Origin: Elusimicrobiota bacterium
GTDB taxonomy: Bacteria > Elusimicrobiota > Elusimicrobia > Elusimicrobiales > UBA9959
Length of the DNA stretch: 64,000 bases
Assembly: GCA_016208085.1 (NCBI GenBank)
Contig: JACQYT010000080.1
Location: forward strand, 56,514 to 120,513
Direction: 5' to 3'
Position numbers and translations under genes: made by a program
Part shown: one piece after another, positions 4,893 to 56,592 of the stretch
Layout of the letters: every line of letters begins with the position of its first letter
Position numbering within the stretch: position 1 is the stretch's first letter
Notes under the pieces: model-generated
Seen by the model: only the letters and a program-made list of their open reading frames with translations
What the model was told of the DNA's origin: nothing
Databases searched by the model: none

Positions 4893-4916
4893 CGCTGATT
4901 TTAAGGAGATGAATCA

Positions 4917-6431: not shown

Positions 6432-6432
6432 T

Positions 6433-6457: not shown

Positions 6458-6458
6458 A

Positions 6459-8787: not shown

Positions 8788-8791
8788 TTTT

Positions 8792-9447: not shown

Positions 9448-9453
9448 GGAACC

Positions 9454-10203: not shown

Positions 10204-10206
10204 CAT

Positions 10207-13200
10207 ATGACCACACCTAAATTCAACGAAGACACGCTTTCTGAAAAGCCGGCTATTGAGCAGCTTAAGCGGATGAAGTATGAATTCTTGACCGGCGACA
10301 AGCTGGATCCGCAGGAAGCCGAGGAATGCGAGCGGACTTCGCGGCGTGATGTGATATTGGCGGATCGCCTGCGGGCCAAGCTTAAAGAATTGAATCCCAA
10401 TGCCGGCGAAATAGCCATTGAAAAAGCCATAAGGCAGGCAACCAATATACAGGGCACAAGCCTTATGGACGAGAACAAATTATTACATAAGGCGCTTGTT
10501 TCAAATATCTCCATAGAGCAGGAAGGTCCCGCCGGGCGCAGAAGCGTAACCATAAAATTTATAGACTTCGACGAGCCCAAAAACAACGACTTCCTTGCGG
10601 TCAACCAGTTCCGGGTCAAAGGCCCCAAGGTCGCGGACAGGCCGGACATAGTAATTTTCGTGAACGGCATCCCTCTGGCCGTTATTGAGTGCAAAAGCCC
10701 GGTTGCCCGTGAAACCGGCGTGGGCGACGCCATAGCACAGCTCCTGCGCTATCAAAAGGAAATTCCCGCGTTATTCAGGACCAACCAGATAGTTTTGGGG
10801 ACGAATCTGTTCGGCGCGAAATACGGCGTTATCGGCGCCGATTATGGCGCTTTCCATGAATGGAAAAACAAGCCGGAAGAAAAACTTCCGGATTTGACCG
10901 ACCATCCCGGCGTCAGGGAAATGCGGGACCTGGGCCTGCTGGAGGACGGGGAATTGCCTCGCGCGCCTGCGCAGCAGGACGTTACCATAGCGGCGCTTTT
11001 TAATAAGCGCAATTTTCTGGACATAATACGCAACTTTACCGTGTTCCAGGCGGACCAGGGCAAGGTCAGCAAAAAAATATGCCGCTACCAGCAGTTCGCG
11101 GCGGTGCAGCGTCTGAGCGCGCGCGTCCTGGCTGAAAAGGAAAAGAAAGGCATTATCTGGCACTGGCAGGGCTCCGGCAAGTCCCTGACCATGGTCTTCG
11201 CCGCCTTGAAACTCCGGCGGGAGGAGAGACGGCTGAAAAACCCGTATTTCCTGGTCGTAACCGACAGAAAAGACCTGGACAGGCAGATAACCAACACCTT
11301 TAACGACTGCGGTTTCCCCAATCCCATCAGGGCCGCGACCGGCCCGGAGCTTTACCGGATGCTGTCGGAGGGCGTGGGCCGCACCATTATGACCACGGTG
11401 CAGAAATTCCGCACGCCGCCGGACAAGCCGCTTTCCCCTGCCGACAATATTATTGTGCTTACCGACGAGGCCCACCGCACGCAGTACGGCAGTTTCGCCT
11501 TCAATCTGCGCAAAGCCCTGCCGAACGCCGCTTTCTTCGCTTTCACCGGCACGCCGCTGGACAAAAAAGATCGCAGCACCTATAAAGAATTCAGCCCCGC
11601 CGGCGAAAGCTACATGCACCGCTACGGCATAATGGAATCCGAGGCCGACAAAGCCACCGTGCCGATAAAATACATGGGCCGCCTGCCTTCGCTGCGCCTG
11701 GTCGGCGGGTCAATAGACGCGCTGCTGGCCTGCCTGTTCCCGGACAAGAGCAAAAGCGAACTGGCCGGGATCAAGAAGCAATACGCCGGCATGGAGGTCC
11801 TGCACGGCGCGCCTCAGAGAATAGAGCGCGTGGCCATGGATATAGTGGAGCATTACCATCAGGCCATACGCCCCAACGGCCTCAAAGCCATGATAGTGGC
11901 CAAAGACAGGGACGCCGCCGAGCTTTACAAAAACTGCCTGGACAAGCTTGTCCCGCCGGAGGCTTCGGCCGTTATCATGACGATAAACGAGCGCGGGGAT
12001 TGTGAAGAGCGCAAAAAGCGCTTCTCGCTTACCGACAAGGAAGAGGAAAACCTGAAAGAGCGCTTTAAGAATCCCGGCGACCCGCTTTCCTTCTTGATCG
12101 TCTGCGACAAACTGCTGACCGGCTTTGACGCGCCGCTTCTGCAGGCCATGTACCTGGACCAGCGGCTTATCGAGCACGGTTTGCTGCAGGCGGTCGCCCG
12201 CACCAACCGCTGCTATCCGGGCAAGAATTACGGGCTTGTGGTGGATTATGTCGGAATCGGAAGCGAATTGGCCGCTTCGCTCAAAAAATTCAATTCCGAG
12301 GATGTGGCCGGCATGTTCAGCGCCGAGGACGTGGAAAAAGAATTGAAGCAGTTGCCGCTTCTTCATAAGGCCGCGATGGTATTTTTCGCCGGCGTTTCTT
12401 TTGATGCCCAGCCCAGGACTATAATCCAGAAATGCCTTGAGGTTCTAAGGCCGCCCGCCGTAAGAGGCGGGTTTGATGAGGCCTACCGCGCCCTGGCAAA
12501 AAGCATGGATTTTCTGATGCCCGACCTGCGGATTGAGCCTTTCCTCAAGGATTTTAAGTTCCTGGGAGCCGTCCGCGAGGGCGCCAAAAACCTGTACCGC
12601 GATGAGCGTCTTAAGTCCGAGGATTTGAGCGCCAAGGTAAAGGCCCTGATACAAGCGCATATCGCCGCCGAAAAAATAGAAGAGCTTTTAAAGCCCCTGA
12701 CGATTACCGCGCCTGACTTTGCCGGGCAGCTTGCGGCCAAGGGTTCGGATAAAGCCAAGGCGGTGCACCTGGAATACGCTTTGCGCGACACGCTGCGCAG
12801 CGCGTCTGCGGAAAACCCGGCATTTTATGAAACCCTCCAAAAACGGCTGGAAGACGCGATTGCCGCGAATAAAAAAGAACGCCGCGACGACGCGGACCTG
12901 CTGTTGTCGCTTATGCGGATAAAGGAAATAGAGGCGCATAAAGACGAGACGGCGAAAAAACTAGGCCTGGCCGGCGGCAGGGAGTTCGCCTTCTTCGGCC
13001 TTATTGACCGGTCCGAAGACCTGCCGGGCTTGAAAAAGGAAGAGCGGGCCGTTCTCGCCAAAGAAATTATCGGCCTGATAGAAGAGCGGGCCGTAGCCGA
13101 GTGGGCCGAGCGGGAAGATATTCAAAAGGAAATGCGTCGTGAAATAAAACGCCTGCTCAGGCGCAAAGGCTGCGCCGAGGAAAAGCTCCCGGCCCTGACC

Positions 13201-13242
13201 AGGGAGTTGATTGAGCTGGCCCAGCAATGGGTAAAGCGTTAA
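10207..13242 (+). CDS. hsdR: Type I restriction enzyme R subunit HsdR (nuclease + SF2 translocase)
   Basis: PD-(D/E)xK region PDIVIFVNGIPLAVIECK, helicase motif I WQGSGKSLTM, and DEAH box LTDEAHRTQYG. 1011 aa. Confidence 0.95.
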   Translation: MTTPKFNEDTLSEKPAIEQLKRMKYEFLTGDKLDPQEAEECERTSRRDVILADRLRAKLKELNPNAGEIAIEKAIRQATNIQGTSLMDENKLLHKALVSNISIEQEGPAGRRSVTIKFIDFDEPKNNDFLAVNQFRVKGPKVADRPDIVIFVNGIPLAVIECKSPVARETGVGDAIAQLLRYQKEIPALFRTNQIVLGTNLFGAKYGVIGADYGAFHEWKNKPEEKLPDLTDHPGVREMRDLGLLEDGELPRAPAQQDVTIAALFNKRNFLDIIRNFTVFQADQGKVSKKICRYQQFAAVQRLSARVLAEKEKKGIIWHWQGSGKSLTMVFAALKLRREERRLKNPYFLVVTDRKDLDRQITNTFNDCGFPNPIRAATGPELYRMLSEGVGRTIMTTVQKFRTPPDKPLSPADNIIVLTDEAHRTQYGSFAFNLRKALPNAAFFAFTGTPLDKKDRSTYKEFSPAGESYMHRYGIMESEADKATVPIKYMGRLPSLRLVGGSIDALLACLFPDKSKSELAGIKKQYAGMEVLHGAPQRIERVAMDIVEHYHQAIRPNGLKAMIVAKDRDAAELYKNCLDKLVPPEASAVIMTINERGDCEERKKRFSLTDKEEENLKERFKNPGDPLSFLIVCDKLLTGFDAPLLQAMYLDQRLIEHGLLQAVARTNRCYPGKNYGLVVDYVGIGSELAASLKKFNSEDVAGMFSAEDVEKELKQLPLLHKAAMVFFAGVSFDAQPRTIIQKCLEVLRPPAVRGGFDEAYRALAKSMDFLMPDLRIEPFLKDFKFLGAVREGAKNLYRDERLKSEDLSAKVKALIQAHIAAEKIEELLKPLTITAPDFAGQLAAKGSDKAKAVHLEYALRDTLRSASAENPAFYETLQKRLEDAIAANKKERRDDADLLLSLMRIKEIEAHKDETAKKLGLAGGREFAFFGLIDRSEDLPGLKKEERAVLAKEIIGLIEERAVAEWAEREDIQKEMRREIKRLLRRKGCAEEKLPALTRELIELAQQWVKR

Positions 13243-19162: not shown

Positions 19163-19516
19163 TTAAGGCTTGAACCTTGTCAGGATTTTTAACAGTTTGA
19201 GGACAATCAGCAGATTTTCTTTTTGTAAAGAGCTTTTTTTATGGAATAACGAGCGGAGCTGATGAAGGATTTTAGCATCAAAAAATTCCTCTTTTCTCGG
19301 CGGGTTTGTTTCCCTGAATAAATCCGATACCGGAACTTTTAAACCCCTGGCGATTTTTTCAACGGTAGCCAGACTGGGTGTTTTCTTGCCGTTCTCAATA
19401 TAATTCAGAAACCCGCCGTCAACTTCAGCCAATTCTGCAAGCTGGCTTATGGTCAAGCCCGCCTTTTTTCTTAAGGCGCGGATTCTTGCGCCCATTTTAG
19501 TGCATAAATCGTTCAT
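19163..19516 (-). CDS. XRE-family helix-turn-helix transcriptional regulator
   Basis: HTH segment LRKKAGLTISQLAELAEVDGGFLNYIENGKKTPSLATVEKIARGL. The start is trimmed to MNDLCTKMG. It is divergent from the giant surface-protein gene. Confidence 0.8.
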   Translation of the reverse strand: MNDLCTKMGARIRALRKKAGLTISQLAELAEVDGGFLNYIENGKKTPSLATVEKIARGLKVPVSDLFRETNPPRKEEFFDAKILHQLRSLFHKKSSLQKENLLIVLKLLKILTRFKP

Positions 19517-19711
19517 TTTGTCCTCCAGACATTGTACGCTTAATGTTATAAAGCACAAAATATCCATATGGACAATAAATACTATTGACATATATAGACA
19601 TTTTAAAAATAGAATATCCTTAGAACAAACCGAACAGAGACTTGCATAAAATCTATGATTTTACCATCTGTCTCTAATTTGCGAAATAACAAGCTTGCAG
19701 GAGGGGAATTT

Positions 19712-22700
19712 ATGAAACTTGGAAAAATTATTTCATATGTTTTGCTAATGTTTGTTTTAGCAGCAGTTTGTTCAGACAGGGCAGGGGCAGTTGACTGGAC
19801 ATTCAAAGTTACGGACACACTCCAGAATTACGGCTCTATTAGCACCTCAACAATACCAAACCCTGTCTATAACGACGGCTCAAAAATAATACGGGCGATT
19901 TCACCGGGCACAACCACAAGCTCCAATAACTGGTCTGCGTTCACCAACACCCTCTCAAATGTGACTTTCTACGCGCAATTGGAAGGAACAGCCCTTTCCA
20001 TTCTTGCCTCAGGCCCGACTGAAAGCGCGCTTCGCGCTCTTTGGGCAGGCTATTGGGATGATGAGCCTTACCTTGTAACGGATCCTGTTTCCGGTAACTC
20101 TCTATACCAAAGCTGGGCGGCCACCTACAGCGGGGGAAATTTTACAAGGCCATATGATAAATCGCGGACATTGTTATACCGTTTGGCAAAAGATACTTTA
20201 AGTCAGTTGAAGGGTTTGGGGGCAGTCGGCCAAAACTCGGCTCTAGCCGGCAATTACACTTACGATAGCGTCCAGCCAAAAAAGGTCTTTGTTATACATT
20301 ACAACGTAATGGCGAGCGAATATGGTTATCATGAATCGCTTTCGTCTCGACATTGGCCGTGGGGAAATGCAACCTCTCAATGCAAATACCATCCTTCTCT
20401 GTATGTCTGCGAATATTCCGACGGCGACGTAACCAAAATATTTAATTTTTCCTATCAGAATCCCGCCGCATTCAATTTGGCTGGTTATATCTCTAACGAC
20501 AATTCAGAATGGACAAAATTATACGCAGACTCAACACTATTAATTGAGCAGGTTAACTCTGGCGGTAAGTTAATCGGTATAAGCAGCGCCGCGGCCTTCC
20601 CATCGCAAATTAAGTGGCAGGGGCATAAGACTTGGTCAACCAATTGGGGAAATTTTTGGTACGCCGTCATGGCGGACTCTGTCAGCTACACAGGAACCTC
20701 GCAGGGGAACAGTGAGCCTGTCACCCCGGAATCACTGGATATTTTTGAACTTTTTAATTTTTCCGCCGGGCCGGTCAGCAGCGCGCCGATCGCCGCCATT
20801 CCCGGCAAAGGCTGGCAGATGCCCACCTACGATCTGGGCGCCACTAATTTCTACCCTTCCTCGTCCACGGCCTTTGCCGGCGGGCTTGGCCTTAAGTGGC
20901 AGGCATCCGCGTCAAAAGCGCTGACAGGGGATGTAAACGGCGACGGTTTCCTGGAGGTGGTTACAACCAATGGCAGCTTCCTGAAGGTGTTAGATAAGAA
21001 CGGCGCTGCGCTTGCGGCCGCAGCGACCCCTGCAACGTTGTCCGTTCTTGCGGACGTGACCGGTGACAATATCCCGGAGATATTCCTGTCTTACCGGGAC
21101 GGATTTAACAATCTGAAAATTGACATCTATCAGGGCAACGGGGCGTTTATCAAAACAATCAACCGGGGCGCAAGCGGATATGACAGCAGTTGGGAGGTAA
21201 GAGCGGTAATCGGAGACAAGATACTCACCGGCGAATATACGGGTTACAGCCTAATCCCCAGGGGCGCCGGCGCCTACAGCTATTCATCAGGCAACCAGCT
21301 TTGGTATTACGAAATAGGGCCCTGCTTTGCCGGAGGCGCGGCAAAAGGTTTCGGCATCGGCGACATCAACAGCGACGGGAAGCTGGAGGCGGGGCTTGGC
21401 GCTTACACCTGCCATAACGGAAAGTCGGCGAATGGGACGACTGACGGAGACATCTACAGCATAGTGATAAATGAAGACGGGCAGAATGTCTGGACAAAGA
21501 AAATCGCCGCTGATTGGGTAGCCGGCTGCGCTACGAACGGCTGGATTGAGCATACCTTTGCCGATATAAACGGCGACGGAAATTTAGAAGTCATCGCATT
21601 TGAGCAGCATGACCCGACATATTACCCGGGAACGAATCATATCCATTTAGTAAGCAATACCGGAGCAAACCTGGCGACTTTTGTCGGACCCGACAACGGC
21701 GAGAATTGGCTCTGGGCGATCGCCGATATGAACAATGACGGAAAAAAAGACATTGTTGTCTCCGCTAATAATGAGCAGCGAATTTATATTCTTGACAACC
21801 AGTTGGTCGTTCTGTCGTCAAGCGCTGCCGGCACGGGACAGGTGCTGGCGGTGAACGATATAAACGGCGACGGGAACAACGAAATAATCAGCTACCAGAC
21901 AAGCACATCTAAAATCAGGGTGCTTGGAAGCGATTTCACGGAACTGTATTCTTACGGTGTCAATAATGTGACTCCGTTCGGCAAGATAGTCTCGGATTTG
22001 GACAATGATGGCCAAAACGAGCTTATCGTTTTTACAACCGTAAATCAGATGTATGTTTTGGGGGCAATTGCGTCCGTTGCCACAATCTCCGGCAAGGTGA
22101 CAAAAGCCGACGGAACGACAGCCCTCCCCGGCGCAAAAGTTGAGGTTTTACAAAGTTCGGTTGTAAAGGCTTCGGCAACAGTGGACACAAGCGGCAATTA
22201 CTCTTTGACGATTGCCACCGGGACTTACGACATCAGGGCCTCGTCAAATGGGTATATCACCTCCACCCAAACCGGCAAAACCGTGGCATCAGGTCAAAAC
22301 CCTCCGGTTAATTTTACGCTGAACAGCGCTGTTATTATTGAAAAGATGGTCTTCAGCAAGAATGTCTCCGGCGACGACTATGATATTTACATAATGAATC
22401 CTGACGGCAACGGGCTTCAACAATTGACATCAGGAACTAACAGTGACCGGCGGCCGAGAATATCGCCTGACGGAGAGCTAATTGCTTTTGTAAGAGACGC
22501 GGGCGCAATATATGTAATGAACCCTGATGGCAGCGATGTCCATTCTATAGGTAATACATATTCATTATCATATGATCTGGCATGGTCAACCGACAGCAAA
22601 AAAATATATTACACAACAGGGGAAGGCAGCACCCAAATCCGCTCAATCGCAGTCTCGGGCGGAGCAGACACGCTTGTCTTAAGCAAGACTTCATACCGGT

Positions 22701-25700
22701 TTTTGTCGGTGGATGTGTCTTCCGACGGCAACCGGTTGGTATATATCCTGGACCCTTCAAACTGGACCCCGTACGCAGAACTTCACACGTTCAATCTTTC
22801 CACCCTGCAAGATGCCACTCTGCTGGGCAACGATGGTATTCGGGATTTTTACGCGCGATTTTCCCATGATGGCCAGAAAATAATATGGACAAAAGATACA
22901 AACTCCGAACCTTACGATTTCGGAATGCATATCTGGAAAATGAATACGGACGGTTCAGGCCAAACCGATCTGCACTCCGGGGCTAATTTTGAGGCTGACT
23001 ATCCTGTGGCTTCGCCTGATGACAGCCAAATCGTTTTTGCGCGCAGGGATTCGGCGTCGGGACCATGGAATCTCTGGAAGATGGGCTTTGACGGGACGAA
23101 TCAGGCTCAAATAACAACTATCGGAGGATGTATTGATACGGACTGGGGCCTGGCCGCCGCGCTATCTTCACCAACCGGCTTCATCTCAGGCAAGGTTACA
23201 AAGGCGGACGGGACAACGGCCATCCTGGGCGCAAAAATTGAAGCTTTGCAAAGCTCGGTTGTCAAAGCCTCGTCAACAGCGGACGCAAGCGGCAATTACT
23301 CTTTGACATTGGCCGCCGGAACTTATAACGTCCGTGCTTCTTCAACAGGTTATGTTGCCGCCGTCCAGACAGGTAAAACGGCAACAGCCGGCCAAACCGC
23401 CACGGTCAATTTCAACCTGGACACGGAGATCGTCGGCCAGCCTGACCTGGTTGTGTCAACTATTACCGTGGACTGTTCCACTCCGACAATCAACCAAACC
23501 GTTAATGTGATTATAAAGGTCAAAAACCAGGGCACGGCCGGCGCCAACGGGACTTTCTGGGTGGATTTCTACAAAAATCTCTCCCAGTCGCCGGCTGTGT
23601 CCCAACTGGGCAACGCTTACTGGTCTCAGAGCCCTCTGGAGGCCGGCGCGACAGCCCAATTGACTACGAGCTTCCATTATGACGGGGGCCAGTACAATCT
23701 TTACGCCCAGATTGACTCGGAAAACAACATAGCGGAAAGCAATGAAAGCAATAATATTTATGGACCGGTTTTAGTCAAAGAACAGATGGCAGGCGGGTGG
23801 ATCAGCGGCAAGGTTATTTCCAGGGCCGACGGCAAGGCCGTCCAGGGGGCGGCCATTGCCGCAAAACAGGGCGGGACAGCAATTAACAGTGCGGCGACAA
23901 ATATCGCCGGCAATTATGTTCTCGCTATTGCCTCAGGCGCTTATACGCTGGAAGCGACGGCTCCCGGTTATCTTTCCTCGTCAACGGCTGTTTCTATCCA
24001 GCTGGAGGAGACGAAATACAAAGACTTCGCCCTCTCGCCTATAACGGGTCAGGGCGTGATTACGGGATTTGTCACAAAAGCCGACGGGGTGACTCCCATT
24101 CCGAATGCCGCCATAAAATTGTCAATCGGAGCAATAGTCGTTGACACGAGGCTCGCAAACGCCATCGGCGCATACAGATTCATAACCTCCACCGGCACAT
24201 ACAATCTGGAGGCTAACGCCGCCGGTTATACAACAAAAGTTAACTCAAATATAACTATTTTGGACAACCAGGCGACAGCGGTTAATTTCGCCCTTGCTCT
24301 GGCCAATACGCCGCCGGAGCCTGTTTCTGAGCTTGCCGCTTTGCCTTTGGACAACCTGAAGGTCTTTTTGTCCTGGACCCCGTCCGTGTCCGGCGACGTT
24401 TTCTACTACCGCATTTATTACGCGGCCGGCGCGCTGGATTACCAGACGTTGTATGCCTCGGTAAAGGATACAATCAGCCATCTGGAGCGCTCCTGGACAA
24501 GCCCGGCTTTGAACCGCTCCCAAAATTACTATTTTTCTGTAAGGCCGGTGAATGTTTTTGAAGTGGAAAACCTTGATACCAACAATGAAGTGGAAAACCT
24601 TGATACCAACAATATCGTCAGCGCCGCTATCTCGGAAACCGTCTCCGGCGTCAAAGCGGCGATAAAAGTTCCACAAACAGGCAAAAAGGTCTCCGGCAAC
24701 AGGCTTACCATCGTTGCCGAAGCCGTCCAGGAGCCCTTAAATGTAAGCAAGATTAAATTCATGTACAAAGCGTCCCATCTTGAGGACTGGGAAAGCGTGC
24801 CCGCGGCCGACGCCAGGCATCCCAATCCCGCCGTTGTCTGGCCTTATTTTATCCACTGGGATCTTGCGGATGTTTCTGGCAATTCTTTGCCGGACGGCAA
24901 CTATGATTTAAAAGCCGTCGCATACGATAAAAATAATAACCCGGATCCGTCGCCGATGACCGTGACCATATCAATCAATCATGTGGATAAGGATATAGAG
25001 GAAAAACTGGTTGACGGAAGCCAGCGCAAGACGGAAAAGATACACAACGAGAAAGACAACACAATTAAGGTGGGTGGGGCGGAAGCGGACGCCCTTACCG
25101 AAGTGAAAGTGGCTGCCGGCGCTTTGAACCAGTCGTCGGATTATATCAATGTGACGATTAATCCCTCTCTGGCCTCAAGACCTATCGGAAATTTGGCGCA
25201 AGTGCTGGAATCGCGCGATGTCTTTTTGGACAGCGGCCAGAAAAATCTGTCCAAAGAATCGGAAATAACCATTCCCTATAACGACGCGAATAATGACGGT
25301 GTCGTTGACGGCACAAATATCAAGGCGGATGATTTGCAGGTTTGGTATTTTAATGAAGCGACAAAGTTATGGAAAAAGGAAGATCACTTCACAATAGACA
25401 AGACCAGAAAGGTCGCGACTGTGCTTGCAAGTCATTTCTCCACTTTTGCCCTGGTTTCTTCCCTGGGTGCGGATCTTTCCAATATTAAAGTATATCCCAG
25501 TCCCATCAAGGTTCATGACGGTCATGACAGGGCGACTTTCGCGGGGCTTACCGGCAAGGATGTGAAACTAAGGATATTCAACGTGGCCGGAGAGATCGTC
25601 TTTGAGAAAGAGCATATCTCGACCCCCACCTACGACTGGCTGCTGGTAAACAACAGCGGGAGAGCTGCGGCCGGCGGGGTTTATATATATGCGCTGACCG

Positions 25701-25747
25701 ACAATACCGGCGGGAAAGCCACCGGGAAATTCGGAGTAATAAGATAA
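19712..25747 (+). CDS. Giant (~2010 aa) secreted multidomain surface protein with a T9SS-type C-terminal sorting domain
   Basis: Signal peptide MKLGKIISYVLLMFVLAAVCSDRAGA after a GGAGGGG RBS. There are 7 FG-GAP/VCBS-like blades (GDVNGDGFLEVV, ADINGDGNLEVI, ADMNNDGKKDIV, NDINGDGNNEII, SDLDNDGQNELI ...). Four carboxypeptidase-regulatory-like domains (ISGKVTKADGTT...), TolB-like PD40 repeats, CARDB (PDLVVSTITVD...VKNQG), FN3 and Ig-like modules follow. The C-terminal tail VYPSPIKV...GVYIYALTDNTGGKATGKFGVIR resembles Por_Secre_tail. Confidence 0.85.
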   Translation: MKLGKIISYVLLMFVLAAVCSDRAGAVDWTFKVTDTLQNYGSISTSTIPNPVYNDGSKIIRAISPGTTTSSNNWSAFTNTLSNVTFYAQLEGTALSILASGPTESALRALWAGYWDDEPYLVTDPVSGNSLYQSWAATYSGGNFTRPYDKSRTLLYRLAKDTLSQLKGLGAVGQNSALAGNYTYDSVQPKKVFVIHYNVMASEYGYHESLSSRHWPWGNATSQCKYHPSLYVCEYSDGDVTKIFNFSYQNPAAFNLAGYISNDNSEWTKLYADSTLLIEQVNSGGKLIGISSAAAFPSQIKWQGHKTWSTNWGNFWYAVMADSVSYTGTSQGNSEPVTPESLDIFELFNFSAGPVSSAPIAAIPGKGWQMPTYDLGATNFYPSSSTAFAGGLGLKWQASASKALTGDVNGDGFLEVVTTNGSFLKVLDKNGAALAAAATPATLSVLADVTGDNIPEIFLSYRDGFNNLKIDIYQGNGAFIKTINRGASGYDSSWEVRAVIGDKILTGEYTGYSLIPRGAGAYSYSSGNQLWYYEIGPCFAGGAAKGFGIGDINSDGKLEAGLGAYTCHNGKSANGTTDGDIYSIVINEDGQNVWTKKIAADWVAGCATNGWIEHTFADINGDGNLEVIAFEQHDPTYYPGTNHIHLVSNTGANLATFVGPDNGENWLWAIADMNNDGKKDIVVSANNEQRIYILDNQLVVLSSSAAGTGQVLAVNDINGDGNNEIISYQTSTSKIRVLGSDFTELYSYGVNNVTPFGKIVSDLDNDGQNELIVFTTVNQMYVLGAIASVATISGKVTKADGTTALPGAKVEVLQSSVVKASATVDTSGNYSLTIATGTYDIRASSNGYITSTQTGKTVASGQNPPVNFTLNSAVIIEKMVFSKNVSGDDYDIYIMNPDGNGLQQLTSGTNSDRRPRISPDGELIAFVRDAGAIYVMNPDGSDVHSIGNTYSLSYDLAWSTDSKKIYYTTGEGSTQIRSIAVSGGADTLVLSKTSYRFLSVDVSSDGNRLVYILDPSNWTPYAELHTFNLSTLQDATLLGNDGIRDFYARFSHDGQKIIWTKDTNSEPYDFGMHIWKMNTDGSGQTDLHSGANFEADYPVASPDDSQIVFARRDSASGPWNLWKMGFDGTNQAQITTIGGCIDTDWGLAAALSSPTGFISGKVTKADGTTAILGAKIEALQSSVVKASSTADASGNYSLTLAAGTYNVRASSTGYVAAVQTGKTATAGQTATVNFNLDTEIVGQPDLVVSTITVDCSTPTINQTVNVIIKVKNQGTAGANGTFWVDFYKNLSQSPAVSQLGNAYWSQSPLEAGATAQLTTSFHYDGGQYNLYAQIDSENNIAESNESNNIYGPVLVKEQMAGGWISGKVISRADGKAVQGAAIAAKQGGTAINSAATNIAGNYVLAIASGAYTLEATAPGYLSSSTAVSIQLEETKYKDFALSPITGQGVITGFVTKADGVTPIPNAAIKLSIGAIVVDTRLANAIGAYRFITSTGTYNLEANAAGYTTKVNSNITILDNQATAVNFALALANTPPEPVSELAALPLDNLKVFLSWTPSVSGDVFYYRIYYAAGALDYQTLYASVKDTISHLERSWTSPALNRSQNYYFSVRPVNVFEVENLDTNNEVENLDTNNIVSAAISETVSGVKAAIKVPQTGKKVSGNRLTIVAEAVQEPLNVSKIKFMYKASHLEDWESVPAADARHPNPAVVWPYFIHWDLADVSGNSLPDGNYDLKAVAYDKNNNPDPSPMTVTISINHVDKDIEEKLVDGSQRKTEKIHNEKDNTIKVGGAEADALTEVKVAAGALNQSSDYINVTINPSLASRPIGNLAQVLESRDVFLDSGQKNLSKESEITIPYNDANNDGVVDGTNIKADDLQVWYFNEATKLWKKEDHFTIDKTRKVATVLASHFSTFALVSSLGADLSNIKVYPSPIKVHDGHDRATFAGLTGKDVKLRIFNVAGEIVFEKEHISTPTYDWLLVNNSGRAAAGGVYIYALTDNTGGKATGKFGVIR
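24560..24613 (+). repeat. Perfect 27-bp in-frame tandem duplication (EVENLDTNN x2) inside the giant gene
   Basis: GAAGTGGAAAACCTTGATACCAACAAT occurs twice back to back. Confidence 0.95.
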
Positions 25748-25765
25748 TCTCAGGAGGAAAGCCTT

Positions 25766-27067
25766 ATGGTAAAAAAAGGATTTGTCGTACTAGCTGTCCT
25801 GTCTATGCTTGGTTCAGGGAGCGTTTATGCCGGCCGGGAGGGAAGCACGATCGCCCAATTTCTGAAAATCGGAAGCGGCGCAAGGCTGGCTGCGCTGGGA
25901 GAAAGCTTCGTCGGAATCGCGGACGACGCCGATTCGCTTTATTGGAACCCGGCCGGGCTTGCCAATATTTCGTCTTTGGAAGCCACGGCAAGCGGCGCCA
26001 TGCTCTATGAGGGCATTTTTTACGGCTTCATCGGGGCGGCCGGCAAGGCCGAGAAACTGGGCGGCGCGGTCGGCCTGAGTGTGACCCATCTGGGCATGAG
26101 CGAAATGACGGGATTTGACGCGTCGGGCAACCCGGCGCCGGATTATGGCGCGCATGACCTCGCGGTGGCCATATCCTATGGCCGAAAAGTCAAGCCCGGC
26201 GTTCTGGTCGGCGGCAATATAAAGTCCATCCGCCAGAAAATTGAAAATGAATCCGCTGCCGGGTTTGGAGCGGATATAGGCGGGCTCTATGTTCTGGATA
26301 AAACAAGCGTTGGAATCGCAATCCGCAACATGGGTACATCCATGGGATTTCATGAAAAGTCCGCTCTGCCGCTTTTAATAACGCTCGGCGCCTCCCACAG
26401 GTTACGGCCGGATTTGCTGCTTTGTTCGGACCTTAACCTGCCTTTTGATTATCATGCCAGCCTCCATCTTGGGGGAGAATACTTGTACAGAGAGGCGGTT
26501 ACTTTTCGTGCAGGGCTAAGGACCACAAATATCAGCGCGCTGGGCCTGGTTTCCGCGCTTAGCGTTGGAGTAGGGCTGAAAATAAAGAGCGTAAACTTTG
26601 ATTACGCGCTTCTGCCTTATGGAAACCTGGGAACCGCCCACCGAATCTCAATCAGCAATAAATTCGGCCAGATTCATTCCGGCAGCGCAGATGCCCGGGG
26701 ATCAGCGCGGGCATCGGGAGGGTCCGAGCCCATGGAATCCAAGCCGAAAGCCCAATTCCCCCAGCAACCTGCAGCCGCCCGGCCCGCTGCTCCTGCCCAG
26801 CCTGTTGAACCGAAGACTTCCGATCAACCTGCCGCGGCTGCCGCCGAGACAGCCAAGCCGGAGGAACAAAAGTCTGCAGAACAAATTACACTGTCAACAC
26901 CGACCGTATCGGAGACTGAGATAACAAAGCCAGCCCCGGCCATACCACAAGTCACTCTGCCGGCAGAGCCTGAAAAACCACCAAAGCCTGTTGAAATACC
27001 CGCCGCCCCGGCAGAAGCATCGCCGTCTCCAGCTCCATCCCAGGCTCCAACAACTCCTGGCCAGTAG
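25766..27067 (+). CDS. PorV/PorQ-family outer-membrane beta-barrel protein with a long Pro/Ala/Glu-rich C-terminal tail
   Basis: Signal peptide, then FLKIGSGARLAALGESFVGIADDADSLYWNPAGLANI (the PorV-family N-terminal signature). Alternating beta-strand pattern up to ~aa 300. The last ~125 aa are low-complexity PAAAPAQPVEPK... Confidence 0.7.
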   Translation: MVKKGFVVLAVLSMLGSGSVYAGREGSTIAQFLKIGSGARLAALGESFVGIADDADSLYWNPAGLANISSLEATASGAMLYEGIFYGFIGAAGKAEKLGGAVGLSVTHLGMSEMTGFDASGNPAPDYGAHDLAVAISYGRKVKPGVLVGGNIKSIRQKIENESAAGFGADIGGLYVLDKTSVGIAIRNMGTSMGFHEKSALPLLITLGASHRLRPDLLLCSDLNLPFDYHASLHLGGEYLYREAVTFRAGLRTTNISALGLVSALSVGVGLKIKSVNFDYALLPYGNLGTAHRISISNKFGQIHSGSADARGSARASGGSEPMESKPKAQFPQQPAAARPAAPAQPVEPKTSDQPAAAAAETAKPEEQKSAEQITLSTPTVSETEITKPAPAIPQVTLPAEPEKPPKPVEIPAAPAEASPSPAPSQAPTTPGQ

Positions 27068-28601: not shown

Positions 28602-31448
28602 TCAATTGGAGCGAAGCAAAAACCTTGCACTAGATTTATAAAACGACTTACATATTATTAAAATAAGTCCAAGCAAAGTTATAAGTAAGATCAAACTTGG
28701 TTCTGTCATTCGTTGAGTGTCTTCTCCTAAGTCTAACGATTGGTTGCTTAAAAGCAATTTGTCCTGTTTTTGTTTCAGAATCGCTTTTTGTGCTTCGTTT
28801 TCAACTACAATATATGAAGTTATAGGTGTCATTATTTTTGAGATAAAACTATGCTTGACTAAATTAAGCCATTCTTTGCCGGATGTTTCAGGATGGAAGG
28901 TTTGTGAAATCCATTTGCCTTGCATTATCAAACCTGTCTGCCAACTTTTTTCAATTATTTCCGAATTATTAACTTCAAATAATGTCTCCTTTAAAACAAT
29001 ACTCGGTTTATTGTGATTTGGTAAATAAGCTATTGGTTTTTGTTTGTTGGGATATGCCAATACCTTATGATTAAAATTTAACTCTAATGTGCCGGTAAGC
29101 GGTATTTTAGGATTTGACAATAAAGAATGAGATTCCAAACCCCATTTTTGGTTAATCACGTAGAACAAATTATTTTCAGGATAAGCTATTTTAAAATCGG
29201 AAAAGTCTTTTTCAATTATTGCATTTTCAATACTATCAGTTACTACCACAATAACAGGATAAGCATTGTTCCTGTCTTTATATGAATTAAATAAAACCGT
29301 CCTAATTGCTCTATCCAAAAAAAACCCGCCATCAAAAATCTGTTGGTCAAATTTCTGTCTCCAATTATTGTCTAAAGGAAGGCTGCGGGTATATGTGTTT
29401 GCAAAACTTATTTTGGCATTCTCCTTGCCAATTAGATTTTTACTTAACAGCGATTTAATTCTTTGAGCAAAATCTTCCTTAAAATTTTCTTTTCCAGATG
29501 AAATGTCAACTATAAAGTGATAATACGGCTTTCTCTGAATTTTTTTCAACGTTGTCTTTTCTTTTGCTGAAACATATACAATATTTTCATTTGAACTGGT
29601 AGTAGTTCTTATTTCTGAGTGCTCTTTGTAATTTCCTAATCTTAATGTGGTTCCATCAATAGTAATTTTAACCGGCTCTTGATGGATAAATTCTATTCCT
29701 GTTTTTCGAGTTTCACCTTTAGAAAACGGAAAAACTCTGAAAACCACTTTATTGCCTGACAGATAATGTAAAATACCAGGGTCCCTATTTTCATTTCTGA
29801 TTTGTGAGAATACCCATATTGCAGATTTTTTCTCCGCTAATATACCCATTTCCTTTTTATTTCCAACATATAAGTAATAATCGCTAATCCAACATCCGAT
29901 GGGCAGTTCAATTGTTGTGGCATATTCTGAAAGCTGGGTGGTTTCACTATGATTTGTAATTTCTAAATCCATCCAACTTGTCCAAGCATTTTGTTTTTCG
30001 TCAAAAGTGCTGCTTGAATTTATCTTTGAGATTTTGACTTGAGTATTGCCGATGTTTTCAGCCCGCAATTTAAATGAGGTTTTGCCGTAAAAAACATTTT
30101 CAATAGTGTTAATCTTTGAATCAGACAGGGTAAGGTTGTCTAAAACCAGCCAATTAAAATAAGAAGACAGATAAGGGATTTGTTTTTCAAAAAGCAAATT
30201 TAAATTTCTGTCTTTGTGATATTTGACTACATCTAGTGTTTTTGAAAGAGAGATTTTGTCAATGTTATAGGTTTTAGAATAGTCCGGTTTATACAAGTAC
30301 TCAAGCGTTTCGTTTAATGCGCGTCTGTCCATTAAATAAGTGGCTGTGATAAATAGTGGTAATACAAAAAAACCTGCTACTGAAAGGAATACCGCTAATT
30401 TTTTAGATAGATAGGTTTGTGGGAATTTATAGTCATTTAAAAGTTCGTTTAAATGGATAATAAAAAGCGCCAACGGCGTAAGCATTAAGAAGCCTGTCCC
30501 GACAGCAGCAATTGCAATGATTGAAAATGGCAAAAAGGGCAGGAAAACCAAGAAAAAATAAAAGGTAAAAGCAAACGTTAAACTCCTTCCTGCAAAAAGA
30601 AATAGTCTATACAATTTATTCTGCGAATTCGGCAGGCAAATAAGCAATCCATTTATTACTGCAAGAATGTAAAACCAGATATTGCTAAAATCACCGAAAG
30701 TGCCTGAATTTTCAACTCCAAATTTATTAAAAAAATATTCCTTGTTATTTAATGCTAAACCTAAAAGTGGAAATATAAGAGCAATGGGGATTTTCCAAGC
30801 CAACTGATATTTAACCCACATAGCGGCTTTTTTAAGACCCAGGATGTAAATCCCCCTAATTAAAAAGAATAAGAAGATAAGTGTCGCGATAATTGCCAGA
30901 ATAACCATCGCGTGCATGCTAAAATTTGAATCAACAGGTTTCCACAAGGGGAATATTAGTTGGGTAAATAAATACCAGGAAATAGGAATAATTAGCGCTA
31001 TTAAAAAATTCTTCCAAACCTTTTGTTCTTTATTCTCAGGCGTTAGAAGTGCAACAAGTGTAAAGAGAGAATATGCAAGTGTCGGCATTAAGAAGGTTCC
31101 GACATACAAGATCATATTTGTTGGAACCATCCATTGCGGGATATCAAAAGGGATTATTACATCAAAATAATTTCCATAGAGATATAAGAATGATATGTAA
31201 CTTAACAATGCTGTAATGGAATAGAATGCCGAAACTTCTTTCTTCTTAATTACAAGGTCAACAGCATAAATAAAATTGAGCGTGCCCAATATCGCTAATG
31301 TGCCGCCAAATTTTTTCCAAAGACCTATGCTCTCAGCCGATAAAAGACTTTTGATAATATTGTATTCTCCCAAAAAGATAGCGAACAGTATTCCGATTGG
31401 AATAGCATTGATTATAAACAACCATTTTGGATTAAGTGAGTTTCGCAT
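28602..31448 (-). CDS. MSEP-CTERM-type exosortase substrate: polytopic membrane N-terminus plus a VIT-like/extracytoplasmic domain plus a C-terminal sorting signal
   Basis: 948 aa. There are ~12 predicted TM helices in the first ~370 aa. The C-terminus is MTEPSLILLITLLGLILIICKSFYKSSARFLLRSN (M-T/S-E-P, a TM helix, then a basic tail). Strongly AT-rich. Confidence 0.7.
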   Translation of the reverse strand: MRNSLNPKWLFIINAIPIGILFAIFLGEYNIIKSLLSAESIGLWKKFGGTLAILGTLNFIYAVDLVIKKKEVSAFYSITALLSYISFLYLYGNYFDVIIPFDIPQWMVPTNMILYVGTFLMPTLAYSLFTLVALLTPENKEQKVWKNFLIALIIPISWYLFTQLIFPLWKPVDSNFSMHAMVILAIIATLIFLFFLIRGIYILGLKKAAMWVKYQLAWKIPIALIFPLLGLALNNKEYFFNKFGVENSGTFGDFSNIWFYILAVINGLLICLPNSQNKLYRLFLFAGRSLTFAFTFYFFLVFLPFLPFSIIAIAAVGTGFLMLTPLALFIIHLNELLNDYKFPQTYLSKKLAVFLSVAGFFVLPLFITATYLMDRRALNETLEYLYKPDYSKTYNIDKISLSKTLDVVKYHKDRNLNLLFEKQIPYLSSYFNWLVLDNLTLSDSKINTIENVFYGKTSFKLRAENIGNTQVKISKINSSSTFDEKQNAWTSWMDLEITNHSETTQLSEYATTIELPIGCWISDYYLYVGNKKEMGILAEKKSAIWVFSQIRNENRDPGILHYLSGNKVVFRVFPFSKGETRKTGIEFIHQEPVKITIDGTTLRLGNYKEHSEIRTTTSSNENIVYVSAKEKTTLKKIQRKPYYHFIVDISSGKENFKEDFAQRIKSLLSKNLIGKENAKISFANTYTRSLPLDNNWRQKFDQQIFDGGFFLDRAIRTVLFNSYKDRNNAYPVIVVVTDSIENAIIEKDFSDFKIAYPENNLFYVINQKWGLESHSLLSNPKIPLTGTLELNFNHKVLAYPNKQKPIAYLPNHNKPSIVLKETLFEVNNSEIIEKSWQTGLIMQGKWISQTFHPETSGKEWLNLVKHSFISKIMTPITSYIVVENEAQKAILKQKQDKLLLSNQSLDLGEDTQRMTEPSLILLITLLGLILIICKSFYKSSARFLLRSN

Positions 31449-31977
31449 TATGTCGTGTTAATTCAGTAAGTGTAAAATTAACCCCTAAATAAAAGATTAT
31501 CAGAAAAAAAAGGTAGATAAAAGTCCCTTCGGCTTGGTGTAACCAGGAAATGTGTCCGTCTGCCAGTTTCGCTCCTGATCTGTGTATAAAAACAGAAAAT
31601 AAAATTCTGGAAGTATTTGCAAAAATTGTAAAAATGTATGCGGCAAGCAGCGTAATTGGTAAAGCGGCTATTTTTCTGTTTCTGTCTTGTAAGAATTTAA
31701 TAACCGCGAATGCAAGCATTATAAAACACAATATCCAAAAGTTGAAACCTGAACAAGATTTGTCAATTACAACGTTCAGTTTATCGTGAAAATATCCACC
31801 GTCATTGACACAAATCGAGTTTGAGTTTGTAATTATTTCAATGATTTTGTCGGTTGGTTTAAGTAGAAAATAAAGGTCGGTATTGTCGGCAAGCGTATAA
31901 GCGAATTTTAAAAGTATAAAAACCGCTATCACTGTAAAATAGTATGGTGTATTTCTGTTCGCAGTCATTTTTGTCAA
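31432..31977 (-). CDS. Small exosortase-family transpeptidase (XrtK-like)
   Basis: The exosortase catalytic triad motifs are visible: IDKSCSGFNFW (Cys), FANTSRILF (Arg) and WLHQAEGTFIY (His). 181 aa and polytopic. It overlaps the substrate gene by 17 nt. Confidence 0.75.
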   Translation of the reverse strand: MTKMTANRNTPYYFTVIAVFILLKFAYTLADNTDLYFLLKPTDKIIEIITNSNSICVNDGGYFHDKLNVVIDKSCSGFNFWILCFIMLAFAVIKFLQDRNRKIAALPITLLAAYIFTIFANTSRILFSVFIHRSGAKLADGHISWLHQAEGTFIYLFFLIIFYLGVNFTLTELTRHNAKLT

Positions 31978-53589: not shown

Positions 53590-56500
53590 ATGAACGGAGA
53601 CGGCAGGCCGGAGATGCTGGGGGGTACTACTTCCGGCAACCAGATACAGGCCTTTGACCGTTTTGCCAGGTGGGTCTGGAGATACATACTGGGCAGTCAT
53701 GCTATCTCCACACCGGCGGTTGAACGGCTGACGGCTGACGGAACTCCTGCGGTGTTTGCAGGCAGTTTTGACAGGTATTTACGTTCCATTGACGGGAAAA
53801 CCGGGGTTTTGAACTGGGCATTCCCCGCTTATAACTGGATCTGGTCCTCTCCCGCTGTGGCGGATCTGGATGGCGATGGAGGCAAAGAAGTGGTGTTTGC
53901 GTCAGATACAGGCGCGCCGAACTTATACGTATTAAACGCATCTCAGGGGGCCCTGAAATGGAGCGCGTCCATCGGAGGTTCAGCGCGGGCTTCCGCAGGC
54001 ATTGCGGATTTGAATTCCGACGGCATCAAAGAGGTATTGATCGGCTCGGCCGGCGGCGCTTTCTATTGCCTGAACGGCAAGACAGGAGCGGTTCAATGGA
54101 CCTTCCAGACAGGCGGCGAAATCGTTTCCTCGGCTGCTATCGGAGACCTGGACGGAGACGGGGATTTGGAGGTGGTATTCGGTTCTACCGACGGTTTCCT
54201 CTACGTTCTGGATGGAAAAGGCGTTTTGCTTTGGAAGACGAACCTTGGGAGCCCGGTTTACTCTTCACCGGCTCTGGCCCGGCGGGGCAGCGATACGAGA
54301 CTGGATATCTATATAACCACCCTGGCCGGGAGACTGGCTATTTTGAGGGGAACTGACGGGTTCCTGCTGGGAGGATTTCAGGTGGATGCCCAGGTGGTGT
54401 CCTCGCCTGTCGTAGCAGACATAGACGGAGACGGAAAACTGGAGATATTCTTCCATGACCGCAAAGGGGACACCAACTCTGTAATGTCGGGCGACAGGTT
54501 CTGGGCGGTCCGGGACGTAAATTCCTCGGTTTCTCCGTATGCGCGGGAATGGCCCATGTTCAGGCGGGATTCAGCACATACCGGCGTCTATCCTTTGCCT
54601 GATTCGCCTCCGGCAAAAGTCACCGGTCTTTCAGTGAACGCTCCGGCCGAGGGCGGCAGGCTTGAACTTCTCTGGACCGCGAATGCCGAGCCCGACATCG
54701 CTTCGTACAGAATCTACCGGAACGGGGAATTTAAAATTCAATTAAGCTCCTTATCATACACGGACACGGGGCTTGTCGATGGAACGACCTGCACCTATCA
54801 GGTCGGCGCCGTTGACAGGTCGGGCAATGAAGGGCCGAAGTCCGATTCGGTATCCGGCATGCCAAAGGACCGATTAGCGCCTGTTTCAAGGATCGTGTCG
54901 CCTTCAGACGGGACAAAACTTTCCGCTGCAAGCGTGACTATTTCCGGCACAGCCCGGGATAACGGCGTTGCAGGGGTAAAAAAGGTTGAAATCCGCATAT
55001 TTGATTTACAGGAGGGCGCCACGTGGTTTTTGGCATCTGAAACATCTGCCATATTTAATTTTGAAATGACTGGTTTAAAGGATAACCGCACGTATCAGAT
55101 TGATTCAAGGGCTGAGGATTGGGAAGGCAACCGGGAACAGACGCCTGTTGAGGTTCAGTTCAATGTGATTCTGCCCCCGCTCGCAATAACCGGGCTTACA
55201 GCAATCGTACATGCAACCGGCAATTCAGCAACACTTAGCTGGAACCCTGTGTCTGAAGCGGATATTGCAGGATATAGAATTTATTCCGGAGACGGGAATT
55301 TAATTGCAACAATTTCGACAACAACTTTTGAATTGACAAACCTGACCTATGGCGCCGGCTATACTTATTATGTAAGCGCCGTGGATGCAACCGGACTGGA
55401 AAGCCCGCGAGCCGGTGTTTCATTTACAACGCCTGTGAACGGTTCAGCCAGGGCCGTTATAGGGGTACCTAAAGACGGCAAAAAAATCTGGGGCAATGCA
55501 GTGACCATTAAGGCTGACGCTACGGATTCCGCTTCCAAAGTTCAGTTCCAGTGCCGGAAGGAAGGAGAAGCTGTTTACACAGACATCTCGTCCGCCGACT
55601 CAAACGCGCCGTATGCCGTTTATTGGAATGTGAGCGATGCCCGGATCAGCACCGGCACTTACTATCTGAGAGCGGTGGCTTTTGACTCAGACGGCCTGCC
55701 GGATTTGTCTCCTCCCGAGATTCGCGTACTCGTGGATGACGCAAATGCGGACATTGTGGAAGACGGAAACCCGGAAGTGGATCCAAATGCGCAGCACAGG
55801 AAGATGGAAAAACTCATCTCAGACAATAACGCGCAGAAAATCGAGACTCTGGACGGCACGAATATTGTCATTCCGCCGGGAGCAGTGCCGGAAGGCGAAC
55901 AAATCCAGATCCAGGTTGTCGGCAATGTTGAAGCCTCTCTTCAAGCCGGCGGCAAGATTTTAAAACCTGCGGGCGTATTCCGCAGGTTTACGTTCATCAG
56001 CGGCGCCACGCAATTCAAAGGGAAACTGACTCTAACCCTTCCTGTGCCCGACGGGAATGGAGACGGCATTGTGGACGGGACGGACATCAAGATAAGCTTG
56101 CTGAAGGTTTATTTCTTTTCAGAATCCAAAGGAGAATGGGTTGCCGTGGAATCTTTGAATTCAAATACTCCGGCGCCTTTGTCGGCTGTCGTAACTTCGG
56201 CATCTCCTGCGCAGAATCAGAAATCTGTTTCCGTTCAGGTGGATCACTTTACGCTTTTCGGTCTGTTCCAGGAACAGCTGGTTTCGGAGGAGTTGCGGTT
56301 AGGCGAGCTGTATGTCTACCCGAACCCGGTCCGGGGCAATGACCGGCCGACTTTGCATATAGAAGCCGGAAAGGCGGACCGGCTGGAAATCCGGATTCAT
56401 GACCTTGCAGGGGATCTGATTCACTCCATAGACATAAATTCTCTTCCTTCCATTGTAGATGGTAAGTATGTCTACAGATATCAATGGGACACAGCCGGCG

Positions 56501-56592
56501 TTCCCAGCGGAATATACATCTTCCTGGTGAAGGCTGTCAAAGCCGGCCAGGGAAGCGTGAAAGGAAAAGGCAAGATAGCCTTGATTAAATAA
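53590..56592 (+). CDS. PQQ/FG-GAP beta-propeller + FN3/Ig surface protein with a T9SS-type C-terminal domain; it lacks a signal peptide and is probably 5'-truncated
   Basis: ADLDGDGGKEVVF, ADLNSDGIKEVLI, GDLDGDGDLEVVF and ADIDGDGKLEIFF, with BamB-like G..KW strands. FN3 modules are present. The segment AVIGVPKDGKKIWGNAVTIKADA... is paralogous to 24650..24990 of the giant gene. The C-terminal tail is VYPNPVRGNDRPTLHI...GIYIFLVKAVKAG...GKIALIK. Confidence 0.75.
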   Translation: MNGDGRPEMLGGTTSGNQIQAFDRFARWVWRYILGSHAISTPAVERLTADGTPAVFAGSFDRYLRSIDGKTGVLNWAFPAYNWIWSSPAVADLDGDGGKEVVFASDTGAPNLYVLNASQGALKWSASIGGSARASAGIADLNSDGIKEVLIGSAGGAFYCLNGKTGAVQWTFQTGGEIVSSAAIGDLDGDGDLEVVFGSTDGFLYVLDGKGVLLWKTNLGSPVYSSPALARRGSDTRLDIYITTLAGRLAILRGTDGFLLGGFQVDAQVVSSPVVADIDGDGKLEIFFHDRKGDTNSVMSGDRFWAVRDVNSSVSPYAREWPMFRRDSAHTGVYPLPDSPPAKVTGLSVNAPAEGGRLELLWTANAEPDIASYRIYRNGEFKIQLSSLSYTDTGLVDGTTCTYQVGAVDRSGNEGPKSDSVSGMPKDRLAPVSRIVSPSDGTKLSAASVTISGTARDNGVAGVKKVEIRIFDLQEGATWFLASETSAIFNFEMTGLKDNRTYQIDSRAEDWEGNREQTPVEVQFNVILPPLAITGLTAIVHATGNSATLSWNPVSEADIAGYRIYSGDGNLIATISTTTFELTNLTYGAGYTYYVSAVDATGLESPRAGVSFTTPVNGSARAVIGVPKDGKKIWGNAVTIKADATDSASKVQFQCRKEGEAVYTDISSADSNAPYAVYWNVSDARISTGTYYLRAVAFDSDGLPDLSPPEIRVLVDDANADIVEDGNPEVDPNAQHRKMEKLISDNNAQKIETLDGTNIVIPPGAVPEGEQIQIQVVGNVEASLQAGGKILKPAGVFRRFTFISGATQFKGKLTLTLPVPDGNGDGIVDGTDIKISLLKVYFFSESKGEWVAVESLNSNTPAPLSAVVTSASPAQNQKSVSVQVDHFTLFGLFQEQLVSEELRLGELYVYPNPVRGNDRPTLHIEAGKADRLEIRIHDLAGDLIHSIDINSLPSIVDGKYVYRYQWDTAGVPSGIYIFLVKAVKAGQGSVKGKGKIALIK

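Follow-up and report, generated by a model that had tools for sequence, protein, structure and literature searches.

A cassette pairing variable multidomain proteins with PorV/PorQ-family barrels in Elusimicrobiota and neighbouring candidate phyla

Introduction

The secretion system of type IX (T9SS) and its C-terminal sorting domains (CTDs) have been described as confined to Bacteroidota (PMC10202324; PMC10994853). In this system, the barrels PorV and PorQ anchor PorU and PorZ (PMC5562754), which are the two T9SS proteins with retained CTDs, held by PorV and PorQ (PMC5562754; PMC10202324). It has been proposed that cognate PorV-like barrels shield such retained CTDs (PMC10202324). In the solved translocon, the extracellular loops of PorV wrap around the CTD, one conserved lysine of which (RemZ Lys1110) contacts PorV (PMC10994853). 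PorP-like barrels bind type B cargos (PMC9143113), and on the periplasmic side PorE partners the PorP barrel together with its type B cargo (PMC9143113; PMC12204202). Here, we analyzed a 64,000-nt stretch of DNA from the metagenome-assembled genome of an Elusimicrobiota bacterium (contig JACQYT010000080.1), referred to as the window, in which the gene for a large multidomain protein, the cargo, is followed by the gene for a PorV/PorQ-family barrel. A sequence-only reading of this DNA had described the two genes as a dedicated cargo and shuttle pair of the T9SS type in a GC-rich genome. The window has only 52.4% GC, so the last part of that description did not hold.

Results

Conservation of the cargo and barrel pair

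The pair in the window is one copy of a modular cassette, made of a variable cargo gene and then a PorV-like barrel gene, which has been multiplied in Elusimicrobiota and neighbouring candidate phyla. Using an alignment of 10 barrel sequences, 80 loci were fetched from species-representative genomes. The six-frame open reading frames (ORFs) of 84 non-duplicate sources were then scanned with two hidden Markov models (HMMs), one for the barrel and one made from the tails of seven cargos. The tail was found at the extreme C-terminus in 80/80 tail-bearing ORFs, and 66 of these 80 end just upstream of a barrel gene on the same strand. With stricter criteria, 59 pairs were counted for 85 barrels among 986 non-overlapping genes, compared to an expected 6.9 (P 5e-56). 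When homologue neighbourhoods were inspected by hand, a large multidomain gene (706-1947 aa, with varying domains) was located directly upstream on the same strand in all five cases. The pairing that had been proposed is borne out by these counts, and functional coupling of the cargo and barrel genes is close to certain.

The pair was present at 33 of 44 Elusimicrobiota loci, four of five Firestonebacteria loci and both Desantisbacteria loci, as well as at single loci from Zixibacteria, Krumholzibacteriota and Aerophobetes. It was not found at three Poribacteria loci or one Ignavibacteriaceae locus. Cassette cargos range in size from 191 to >3198 aa, and single genomes contain three or four cassettes, each with a different cargo. 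In one genome, cargos of 1068, 2450 and >1692 aa are each followed by a barrel, the three barrels being ~85% identical, which indicates recent duplication of the cassette as a unit. The distance matrices of barrels and tails were correlated, with a Mantel r of 0.69 that was exceeded in 0/2000 permutations.

Apart from the barrel (78 loci) and cargo subfamilies, no gene family was found to recur beside the cassettes in the 84 sources. The sequence-only reading had recommended a search for core T9SS genes. None of SprA/Sov, PorK/L/M/N (GldK/L/M/N) or PorU was found in the 64-kb window, the part of the genome that was covered, and none recurs in the flanks of the 84 sources. Membership of a T9SS is, therefore, so far not supported. 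A four-gene subfamily of the cassette was also seen (L005, L039, L043, L081), made up of genes for a ~520-aa FecR-domain protein, an unknown protein (~410 aa), a ~1640-aa cargo and the barrel.

The barrel protein

The second gene had been read as a PorV/PorQ-like barrel, and this assignment stands. The protein scored 155.3 bits with the PorV/PorQ family model NF033709 (cutoff 90) over model positions 2-325 of 326, and its sequence is identical to NCBI MBI4802620.1, which is named 'PorV/PorQ family protein'. It contains a signal peptide (aa 1-22), an F-L-K-I-G...W-N-P-A-G-L segment (aa 28-70) and 14 strands (aa 71-300). An AlphaFold2 model made with ten homologues has 14 strands, with block means of the predicted local distance difference test (pLDDT) mostly at 73-96 and one loop at 47. 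PorV was the best structural match of this model in Foldseek (8gl6_F, E 3.9e-12; 6h3i_F, E 7.4e-11), followed by FadL, TodX and TbuX. Flavobacterium johnsoniae PorV was the only sequence match of the barrel in the PDB. The equivalog models gave 106.2 bits for PorQ (NF033711, cutoff 220), 76 bits for PorV2 (cutoff 325) and 60 bits for PorV (NF033710, cutoff 250).

It was also checked whether the barrel belongs to an unrelated porin family. The FadL/TodX model (PF03349, Toluene_X) gave 15.3 bits compared to a cutoff of 29.7, the likeness being in fold only, and PorV was ranked higher than FadL by sequence search as well as by fold search. There was a weak match to UPF0164. PF11751 (PorP/SprF) did not match the window barrel, and no Pfam or NCBIfam match indicated POTRA/Omp85 or two-partner secretion features in the barrel or the cargo.

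The barrel is followed by a disordered tail in which P, A, E, K, S, T, Q or G make up 86% of the residues. This tail is presumed to be periplasmic because the strand number is even and because relatives carry OmpA fusions at the equivalent position. C-terminal extensions of at least 50 aa were found in 27 of 85 barrels. Ten extended barrels were scanned, which gave OmpA peptidoglycan-binding domains in five, CarboxypepD_reg in three, TPR in three and one faint match to PF11751.

The C-terminal tail of the cargo

Judged by their sequences, the cassette tails resemble the type A CTDs of the T9SS (TIGR04183 / PF18962), particularly those of PorZ and PorU. Seventy-seven cassette tails were aligned and then scanned singly, with TIGR04183 matches counted at E <= 0.01. 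This model of the type A CTD matched 70/77 tails (best E 3.4e-14). The C-terminus of PorZ matched 68/77 and that of PorU 60/77, followed by CHU_C (57/77), Por_Secre_tail (55/77) and FlgD_ig (53/77), while the type B model TIGR04131 matched 9/77. The tails share the motifs YP(N/S)P, G-E-(L/I)-V, W, G-V-Y and G-K-x-x-x-I-(K/R). The P of YPNP is present in 73-74 tails, the W in 72 and G-V-Y in 75-76. There is also a K at position -6 in 65/77 and a final K or R in 68/77.

The C-terminus of the window cargo had been called Por_Secre_tail-like. The tail family as a whole matches TIGR04183, while the window tail itself falls below the cutoff. It scored 18.5-20.9 bits with TIGR04183 (cutoff 23; model positions 1-69 of 72) and 17-24 bits with CHU_C (cutoff 27). 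With the PorZ model, it aligned to positions 664-756 of 757 at 34.5 bits (E 7.7e-9).

Domains of the cargo protein

The cargo had been described as a secreted multidomain protein of ~2010 aa. It was found to have 2011 residues and several domains with Pfam or NCBIfam support, as seen in Table 1. Four CarboxypepD_reg domains, a TolB-like PD40 propeller and a CARDB domain had been proposed and all were recovered; the PD40 region also matches TolB chains in the PDB. CarboxypepD_reg copies 1 and 2 are 67% identical in a self-comparison. The FG-GAP assignment was supported as well, but not the count of seven blades, since only six D-x-N-x-D-G-x-x-E calcium-type motifs are clear (at aa 407, 551, 618, 672, 716 and 762). 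The FN3/Ig modules that had been claimed gave no Pfam match in the cargo at E <= 0.01. From its domain content, a role of the cargo as an adhesin or S-layer protein is plausible. A lipoprotein was considered and rejected, as the A-A-V before Cys20 makes a poor lipobox by eye.

The C-terminal stalk is common to other cassette cargos. With phmmer, cargo aa 1533-2011 are matched by a protein from locus L019 (Firestonebacteria; E 1.3e-83) and cargo aa 1640-1980 by the window protein encoded at 53590-56592. Within the stalk, EVENLDTNN occurs twice at aa 1619-1636 (24566-24619), an exact tandem duplication of nine residues.

The N-terminal domain belongs to a rare, uncharacterised family. It had been described as an unassigned domain of ~400 aa, and it is unassigned, as aa 27-~350 have no Pfam match and the domain profile found only a chance match in the PDB (E 1.2), but the family domain covers ~330 aa. 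HMMER found 22 relatives in 1.84 billion representative proteins, the best at E 1.7e-56 and 37% identity. The homologue alignment shows the motifs (F)HNWPWG..., C.Y, CEYSDG, NDN.E and KTWS, and two conserved Cys positions. A single-sequence AlphaFold model was unusable (pLDDT 30). Among the cassette loci (phmmer, 89 sources), the domain was found only at the window's own locus. Its relatives also contain PKD, CARDB, NosD beta-helix or SdrD_B domains, and one has at its end a PGF-CTERM tag, a sorting signal of archaea. The window cargo has a rare domain in common with archaeal-type surface proteins. Our guess is that it may be an extracellular binding or enzymatic head. The NCBI model of the cargo (MBI4802619.1, 1692 aa) begins at an internal Met and drops the signal peptide and N-terminal domain (window 19655-20725). 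Since the domain has homologues at E 1.7e-56, it is genuine coding sequence.

Layout of the locus

The cargo and barrel genes are probably one operon, because the spacer, which is exactly 18 nt as had been reported, carries AGGAGG and no terminator-like site was seen in it. The sequence GGAGGGG precedes the cargo ATG at 19712.

Table 1. Positions of the cargo, the barrel and associated features in the window
Feature	Position	Strand	Remarks
XRE-family helix-turn-helix gene	19163-19591	-	HTH_3 51 bits, HTH_31 51 bits
Divergent intergenic region	19592..19711	.	AT-rich, ~31-31.7% GC
Cargo gene	ORF 19655-25747, likely start ATG 19712	+	2011 aa
Predicted Sec signal peptide, cargo aa 1-26	19712..19789	+	MKLGKIISYVLLMFVLAAVCSDRAGA, judged by eye
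N-terminal ~330-aa domain	19790..20761	+	rare, uncharacterised family
FG-GAP/VCBS beta-propeller region, aa ~400-785	20909..22066	+	PF01839 48.9 bits, PF13517 41.6 bits
CarboxypepD_reg 1 (aa 789-876), PD40/TolB-like propeller (aa ~880-1155), CarboxypepD_reg 2 (aa 1158-1241)	22076..23434	+	Pfam/NCBIfam
CARDB (aa 1243-1350), CarboxypepD_reg 3 (aa 1364-1424), CarboxypepD_reg 4 (aa 1450-1528)	23438..24295	+	Pfam/NCBIfam
C-terminal stalk, aa 1533-1926 (~400 aa)	24308..25489	+	common to other cassette cargos
Putative C-terminal sorting/anchor domain, aa 1927-2011 (~85 aa), and stop codon	25490..25747	+	type A T9SS-like, PorZ/PorU-like
Spacer	25748..25765	+	18 nt, AGGAGG 8 nt before barrel ATG
Barrel gene	25766-27067	+	433 aa
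PorV/PorQ-family outer-membrane protein, aa 1-300	25766..26665	+	signal peptide, N-terminal segment, barrel
Disordered Pro/Ala/Glu-rich barrel tail, aa 303-433 (~130 aa)	26672..27067	+	pLDDT <50 throughout
Second protein with the same CTD (FG-GAP, fn3, Big_7)	53590..56592	+	no adjacent barrel

The divergent XRE gene on the - strand is real. The region between it and the cargo gene had been given as AT-rich and 195 bp long. The composition was confirmed, while the length is 195 nt only if the XRE gene starts at Met26 and is 120 nt from its first ATG. A candidate promoter for the cargo can be seen by eye on the + strand from 19585 (TTGACA, a 19-nt spacer, TAGAAT), the spacer being 1 nt above the limit of the promoter scan; a promoter here is only suggested by these letters. 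With phmmer, a counterpart of the XRE protein was found among the 89 sources (84 non-duplicate) only at the window's own locus. The XRE gene was, therefore, rejected as a part of the cassette and is regarded as local context outside the conserved unit. Recent horizontal transfer of the cassette was also rejected, since its GC content of 50-57% is close to the 52% of the window, unlike that of a nearby 33% GC island.

Neighbouring genes and related clusters

The ORF at 53590-56592 opens inside an FG-GAP repeat without a signal peptide and has ~500 nt of non-coding DNA upstream. This protein is possibly truncated at its N-terminus.

The 33% GC island is located at 28602-31977 on the - strand and carries the genes of an MSEP-CTERM protein (916 bits with TIGR04286) and of exosortase K (139 bits with TIGR04287), a pair typical of Bacteroidota. 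It splits a shikimate-pathway operon between aroA and aroQ/aroB, and the same layout is seen in L001 and L002. The island looks like a horizontally acquired sorting system.

A motor-type cluster was seen in other Elusimicrobia (L004 1-12116; also L028, L035 and L055). The encoded products are, in order, a >6000-aa protein whose tail is the same, a TPR fusion of a divergent PorV-like barrel, a protein resembling the FliG C-terminus, a stator of the PomA/MotA type (175 bits), two proteins like MotB/OmpA, a CheY-like receiver, a CTD cargo of 706 aa and a PorV-like barrel. Barrel P0004 of this cluster is 41% identical to the window barrel and among its five closest homologues. The cluster could form a non-flagellar motor with a link to surface proteins.

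Elsewhere in the window, a type I restriction-modification system (HsdM, HsdS, HsdR) at 3408-13242 is interrupted by AAA_14/DUF4143, ORF6N and Fic genes. Further defence-type genes are a DruA-like gene and an AbiEi/AbiEii pair (38546-39415; 49824-51268). The record of one protein at the window edge adds a single gene, a SpoU methylase.

Discussion

A surface protein with its own dock

We favour, with moderate confidence, a two-gene operon that builds a surface protein together with its own outer-membrane dock, nearer to PorZ-PorQ or SprB-SprF than to a free shuttle. The earlier word "shuttle" is probably wrong. The PorQ-like score of the barrel, the PorZ-like tail, the OmpA-fused sister barrels and the several cargo-specific copies per genome argue for a fixed dock over a mobile carrier. 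An OmpA fusion ties the barrel to the cell wall and, therefore, suits a dock and not a shuttle.

In this operon, Sec would export both products, as their signal peptides suggest. The 14-stranded barrel would then sit in the outer membrane, as expected from its family and fold, with its Pro/Ala-rich tail in the periplasm. Homology and gene order suggest that the last ~85 cargo residues would fold as a type A T9SS-like beta-sandwich and that this retained CTD would be held by the extracellular loops of the barrel encoded by the adjacent gene. The N-terminal domain, the two propellers, the CarboxypepD_reg and CARDB domains and the stalk, together 1900 aa, could project outward as a binding or adhesive array, in line with the domain content. 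The outer membrane would presumably be crossed through a translocon encoded elsewhere. Both the mode of cargo-barrel binding and the surface location are what we infer from homology.

Several findings weigh against this reading. Neither the window nor the related cassette neighbourhoods supply a translocon for crossing the outer membrane. The window tail is under the curated cutoff of every CTD model, and the barrel is far under the equivalog cutoffs of PorV (60 vs 250) and PorQ (106 vs 220). Within genomes, cargo-barrel specificity ranked 1 of 2, 1 of 2, 3 of 24 and 5 of 6; with such mixed ranks, the Mantel signal may reflect only co-inheritance. Also, no barrel adjoins the gene for the other window protein with this tail (53590-56592), and one barrel might, therefore, serve several cargos.

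Alternative explanations

The last point would fit an ordinary T9SS located elsewhere in the genome, with the barrel acting as a general PorV carrier, the CTD cleaved, the cargo linked to lipopolysaccharide or released, and the adjacency of the genes due to co-expression. This would also agree with the homology of the tail to type A CTDs, with PorV as the nearest solved structure of the barrel and with the presence of the cassette in Zixibacteria and Krumholzibacteriota, which belong to the FCB group, where a T9SS is expected. However, a genome can hold three to four barrel paralogues that each follow a different cargo, and OmpA-fused barrels could not diffuse as shuttles. The PorV equivalog score (60 vs 250), the lack of any core gene in the 64 kb or recurring beside the 84 sources, and a review that confines CTD proteins and the T9SS to Bacteroidota (PMC10202324) make this explanation unlikely. 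No relevant paper on a T9SS or PorV in Elusimicrobia or Endomicrobia was found in the literature searched.

Another possible explanation is self-contained export, in which the barrel, perhaps with the beta-barrel assembly machinery, exports and holds its partner as a two-partner-like unit without a T9SS. Folded propellers would not fit through a 14-strand barrel of the FadL type that holds an N-terminal segment, none of the relatives of FadL or PorV is known as a protein conduit, and the barrel is without POTRA or Omp85 features. In addition, PorV in the solved T9SS only receives the CTD inside SprA (PMC10994853). We, therefore, hold self-contained export to be quite unlikely, even though no further gene family is regularly found next to the cassettes, whole cassettes have been duplicated with new cargos and the host phylum is not known to have a T9SS. 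It is very improbable that the two genes are unrelated neighbours, the one encoding a FadL-like channel through which hydrophobic molecules pass, the other a secreted or periplasmic protein independent of it. FadL, TodX and TbuX are strong structural matches, and some relatives are named 'long-subunit fatty acid transport protein', but the adjacency is ~9x chance across phyla and the tail is at the exact C-terminus in 80/80 ORFs. The Toluene_X score (15 bits vs 29.7) and the rank of PorV above FadL in both kinds of search also speak against such a channel.

Going beyond the dock that we favour, the cassette could be an autonomous display module without the Bacteroidota T9SS core, maybe the ancestral 'cargo and dock' unit of the attachment complex, which in some Elusimicrobia might be coupled to a non-flagellar MotA/MotB/FliG-like motor. 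We offer this as a speculation that is somewhat unlikely.

Significance

What is already known are the family names, which are applied automatically by NCBI. No description was found in the literature searched of a conserved operon of type A-like CTD cargo and PorV/PorQ-family barrel, of its multiplication in Elusimicrobiota and neighbouring phyla, or of wall-binding barrel fusions. The analysis shows that tails homologous to those of the T9SS combine with barrels of the PorV/PorQ type in a modular operon, present in multiple copies, in Elusimicrobiota and in several candidate phyla, some of the barrels being linked to the cell wall. Should the barrels be cargo-specific docks, they provide a simple rule by which the surface proteome of uncultured diderm lineages can be found from genomes. 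They would also support the proposal that cognate PorV-like barrels retain CTDs, and the origin of the T9SS attachment machinery would become testable.

Comparison with known systems

Two-partner secretion (TpsA-TpsB) is likewise a two-gene unit of a large exoprotein and a dedicated barrel. Unlike TpsB, the cassette barrel is not of the Omp85/POTRA type; the recognition domain is C-terminal and the gene order is reversed. FadL/TodX and Treponema UPF0164 proteins have the same 14-strand fold with an N-terminal in-barrel segment as the window barrel. Unlike FadL/TodX, the cassette has no link to lipid or hydrocarbon genes and shows a conserved pairing with CTD proteins. F. johnsoniae PorV (6H3I, 8GL6) has the N-terminal motif F-L...A-R-A-x-G-L-G...W-N-P-A in common with the window barrel. 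In contrast to PorV, with which it is 17-18% identical, the window barrel has shorter loops (barrel ~300 vs ~370 aa), an added disordered tail and no known SprA partner.

In systems of the SprB-SprF type, the barrel is encoded next to the adhesin gene. SprB-SprF and PG1035-PorP-PorE, both type B, follow the same logic as the cassette, in that each big adhesin has its own anchoring barrel (PMC9143113). PorE consists of TPR, propeller, CarboxypepD_reg and OmpA domains (PMC12204202), and similar kinds of domains are fused to cassette barrels or found within the window cargo. Unlike in the type B systems, the cassette barrel is of the PorV/PorQ family and not PorP/SprF, and the tail is type A-like.

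The PorZ-PorQ and PorU-PorV pairs in the attachment complex of the Porphyromonas gingivalis T9SS differ from the cassette in that the cassette genes are adjacent, multi-copy, combined with unrelated cargos and hosted by Elusimicrobiota. The cassette cargo is without the PorZ or PorU body and scores far below the equivalog cutoffs, and no sortase or lipopolysaccharide-attachment role is implied for it. As in the cassette, a PorV/PorQ-family barrel in these pairs holds a large surface protein with a retained type A-like CTD (PMC5562754, PMC10202324); the best score of the window tail is with the PorZ C-terminus, and the best equivalog of the window barrel is PorQ. The known kind behind the cassette is the cargo-specific PorV-like or PorP-like dock.

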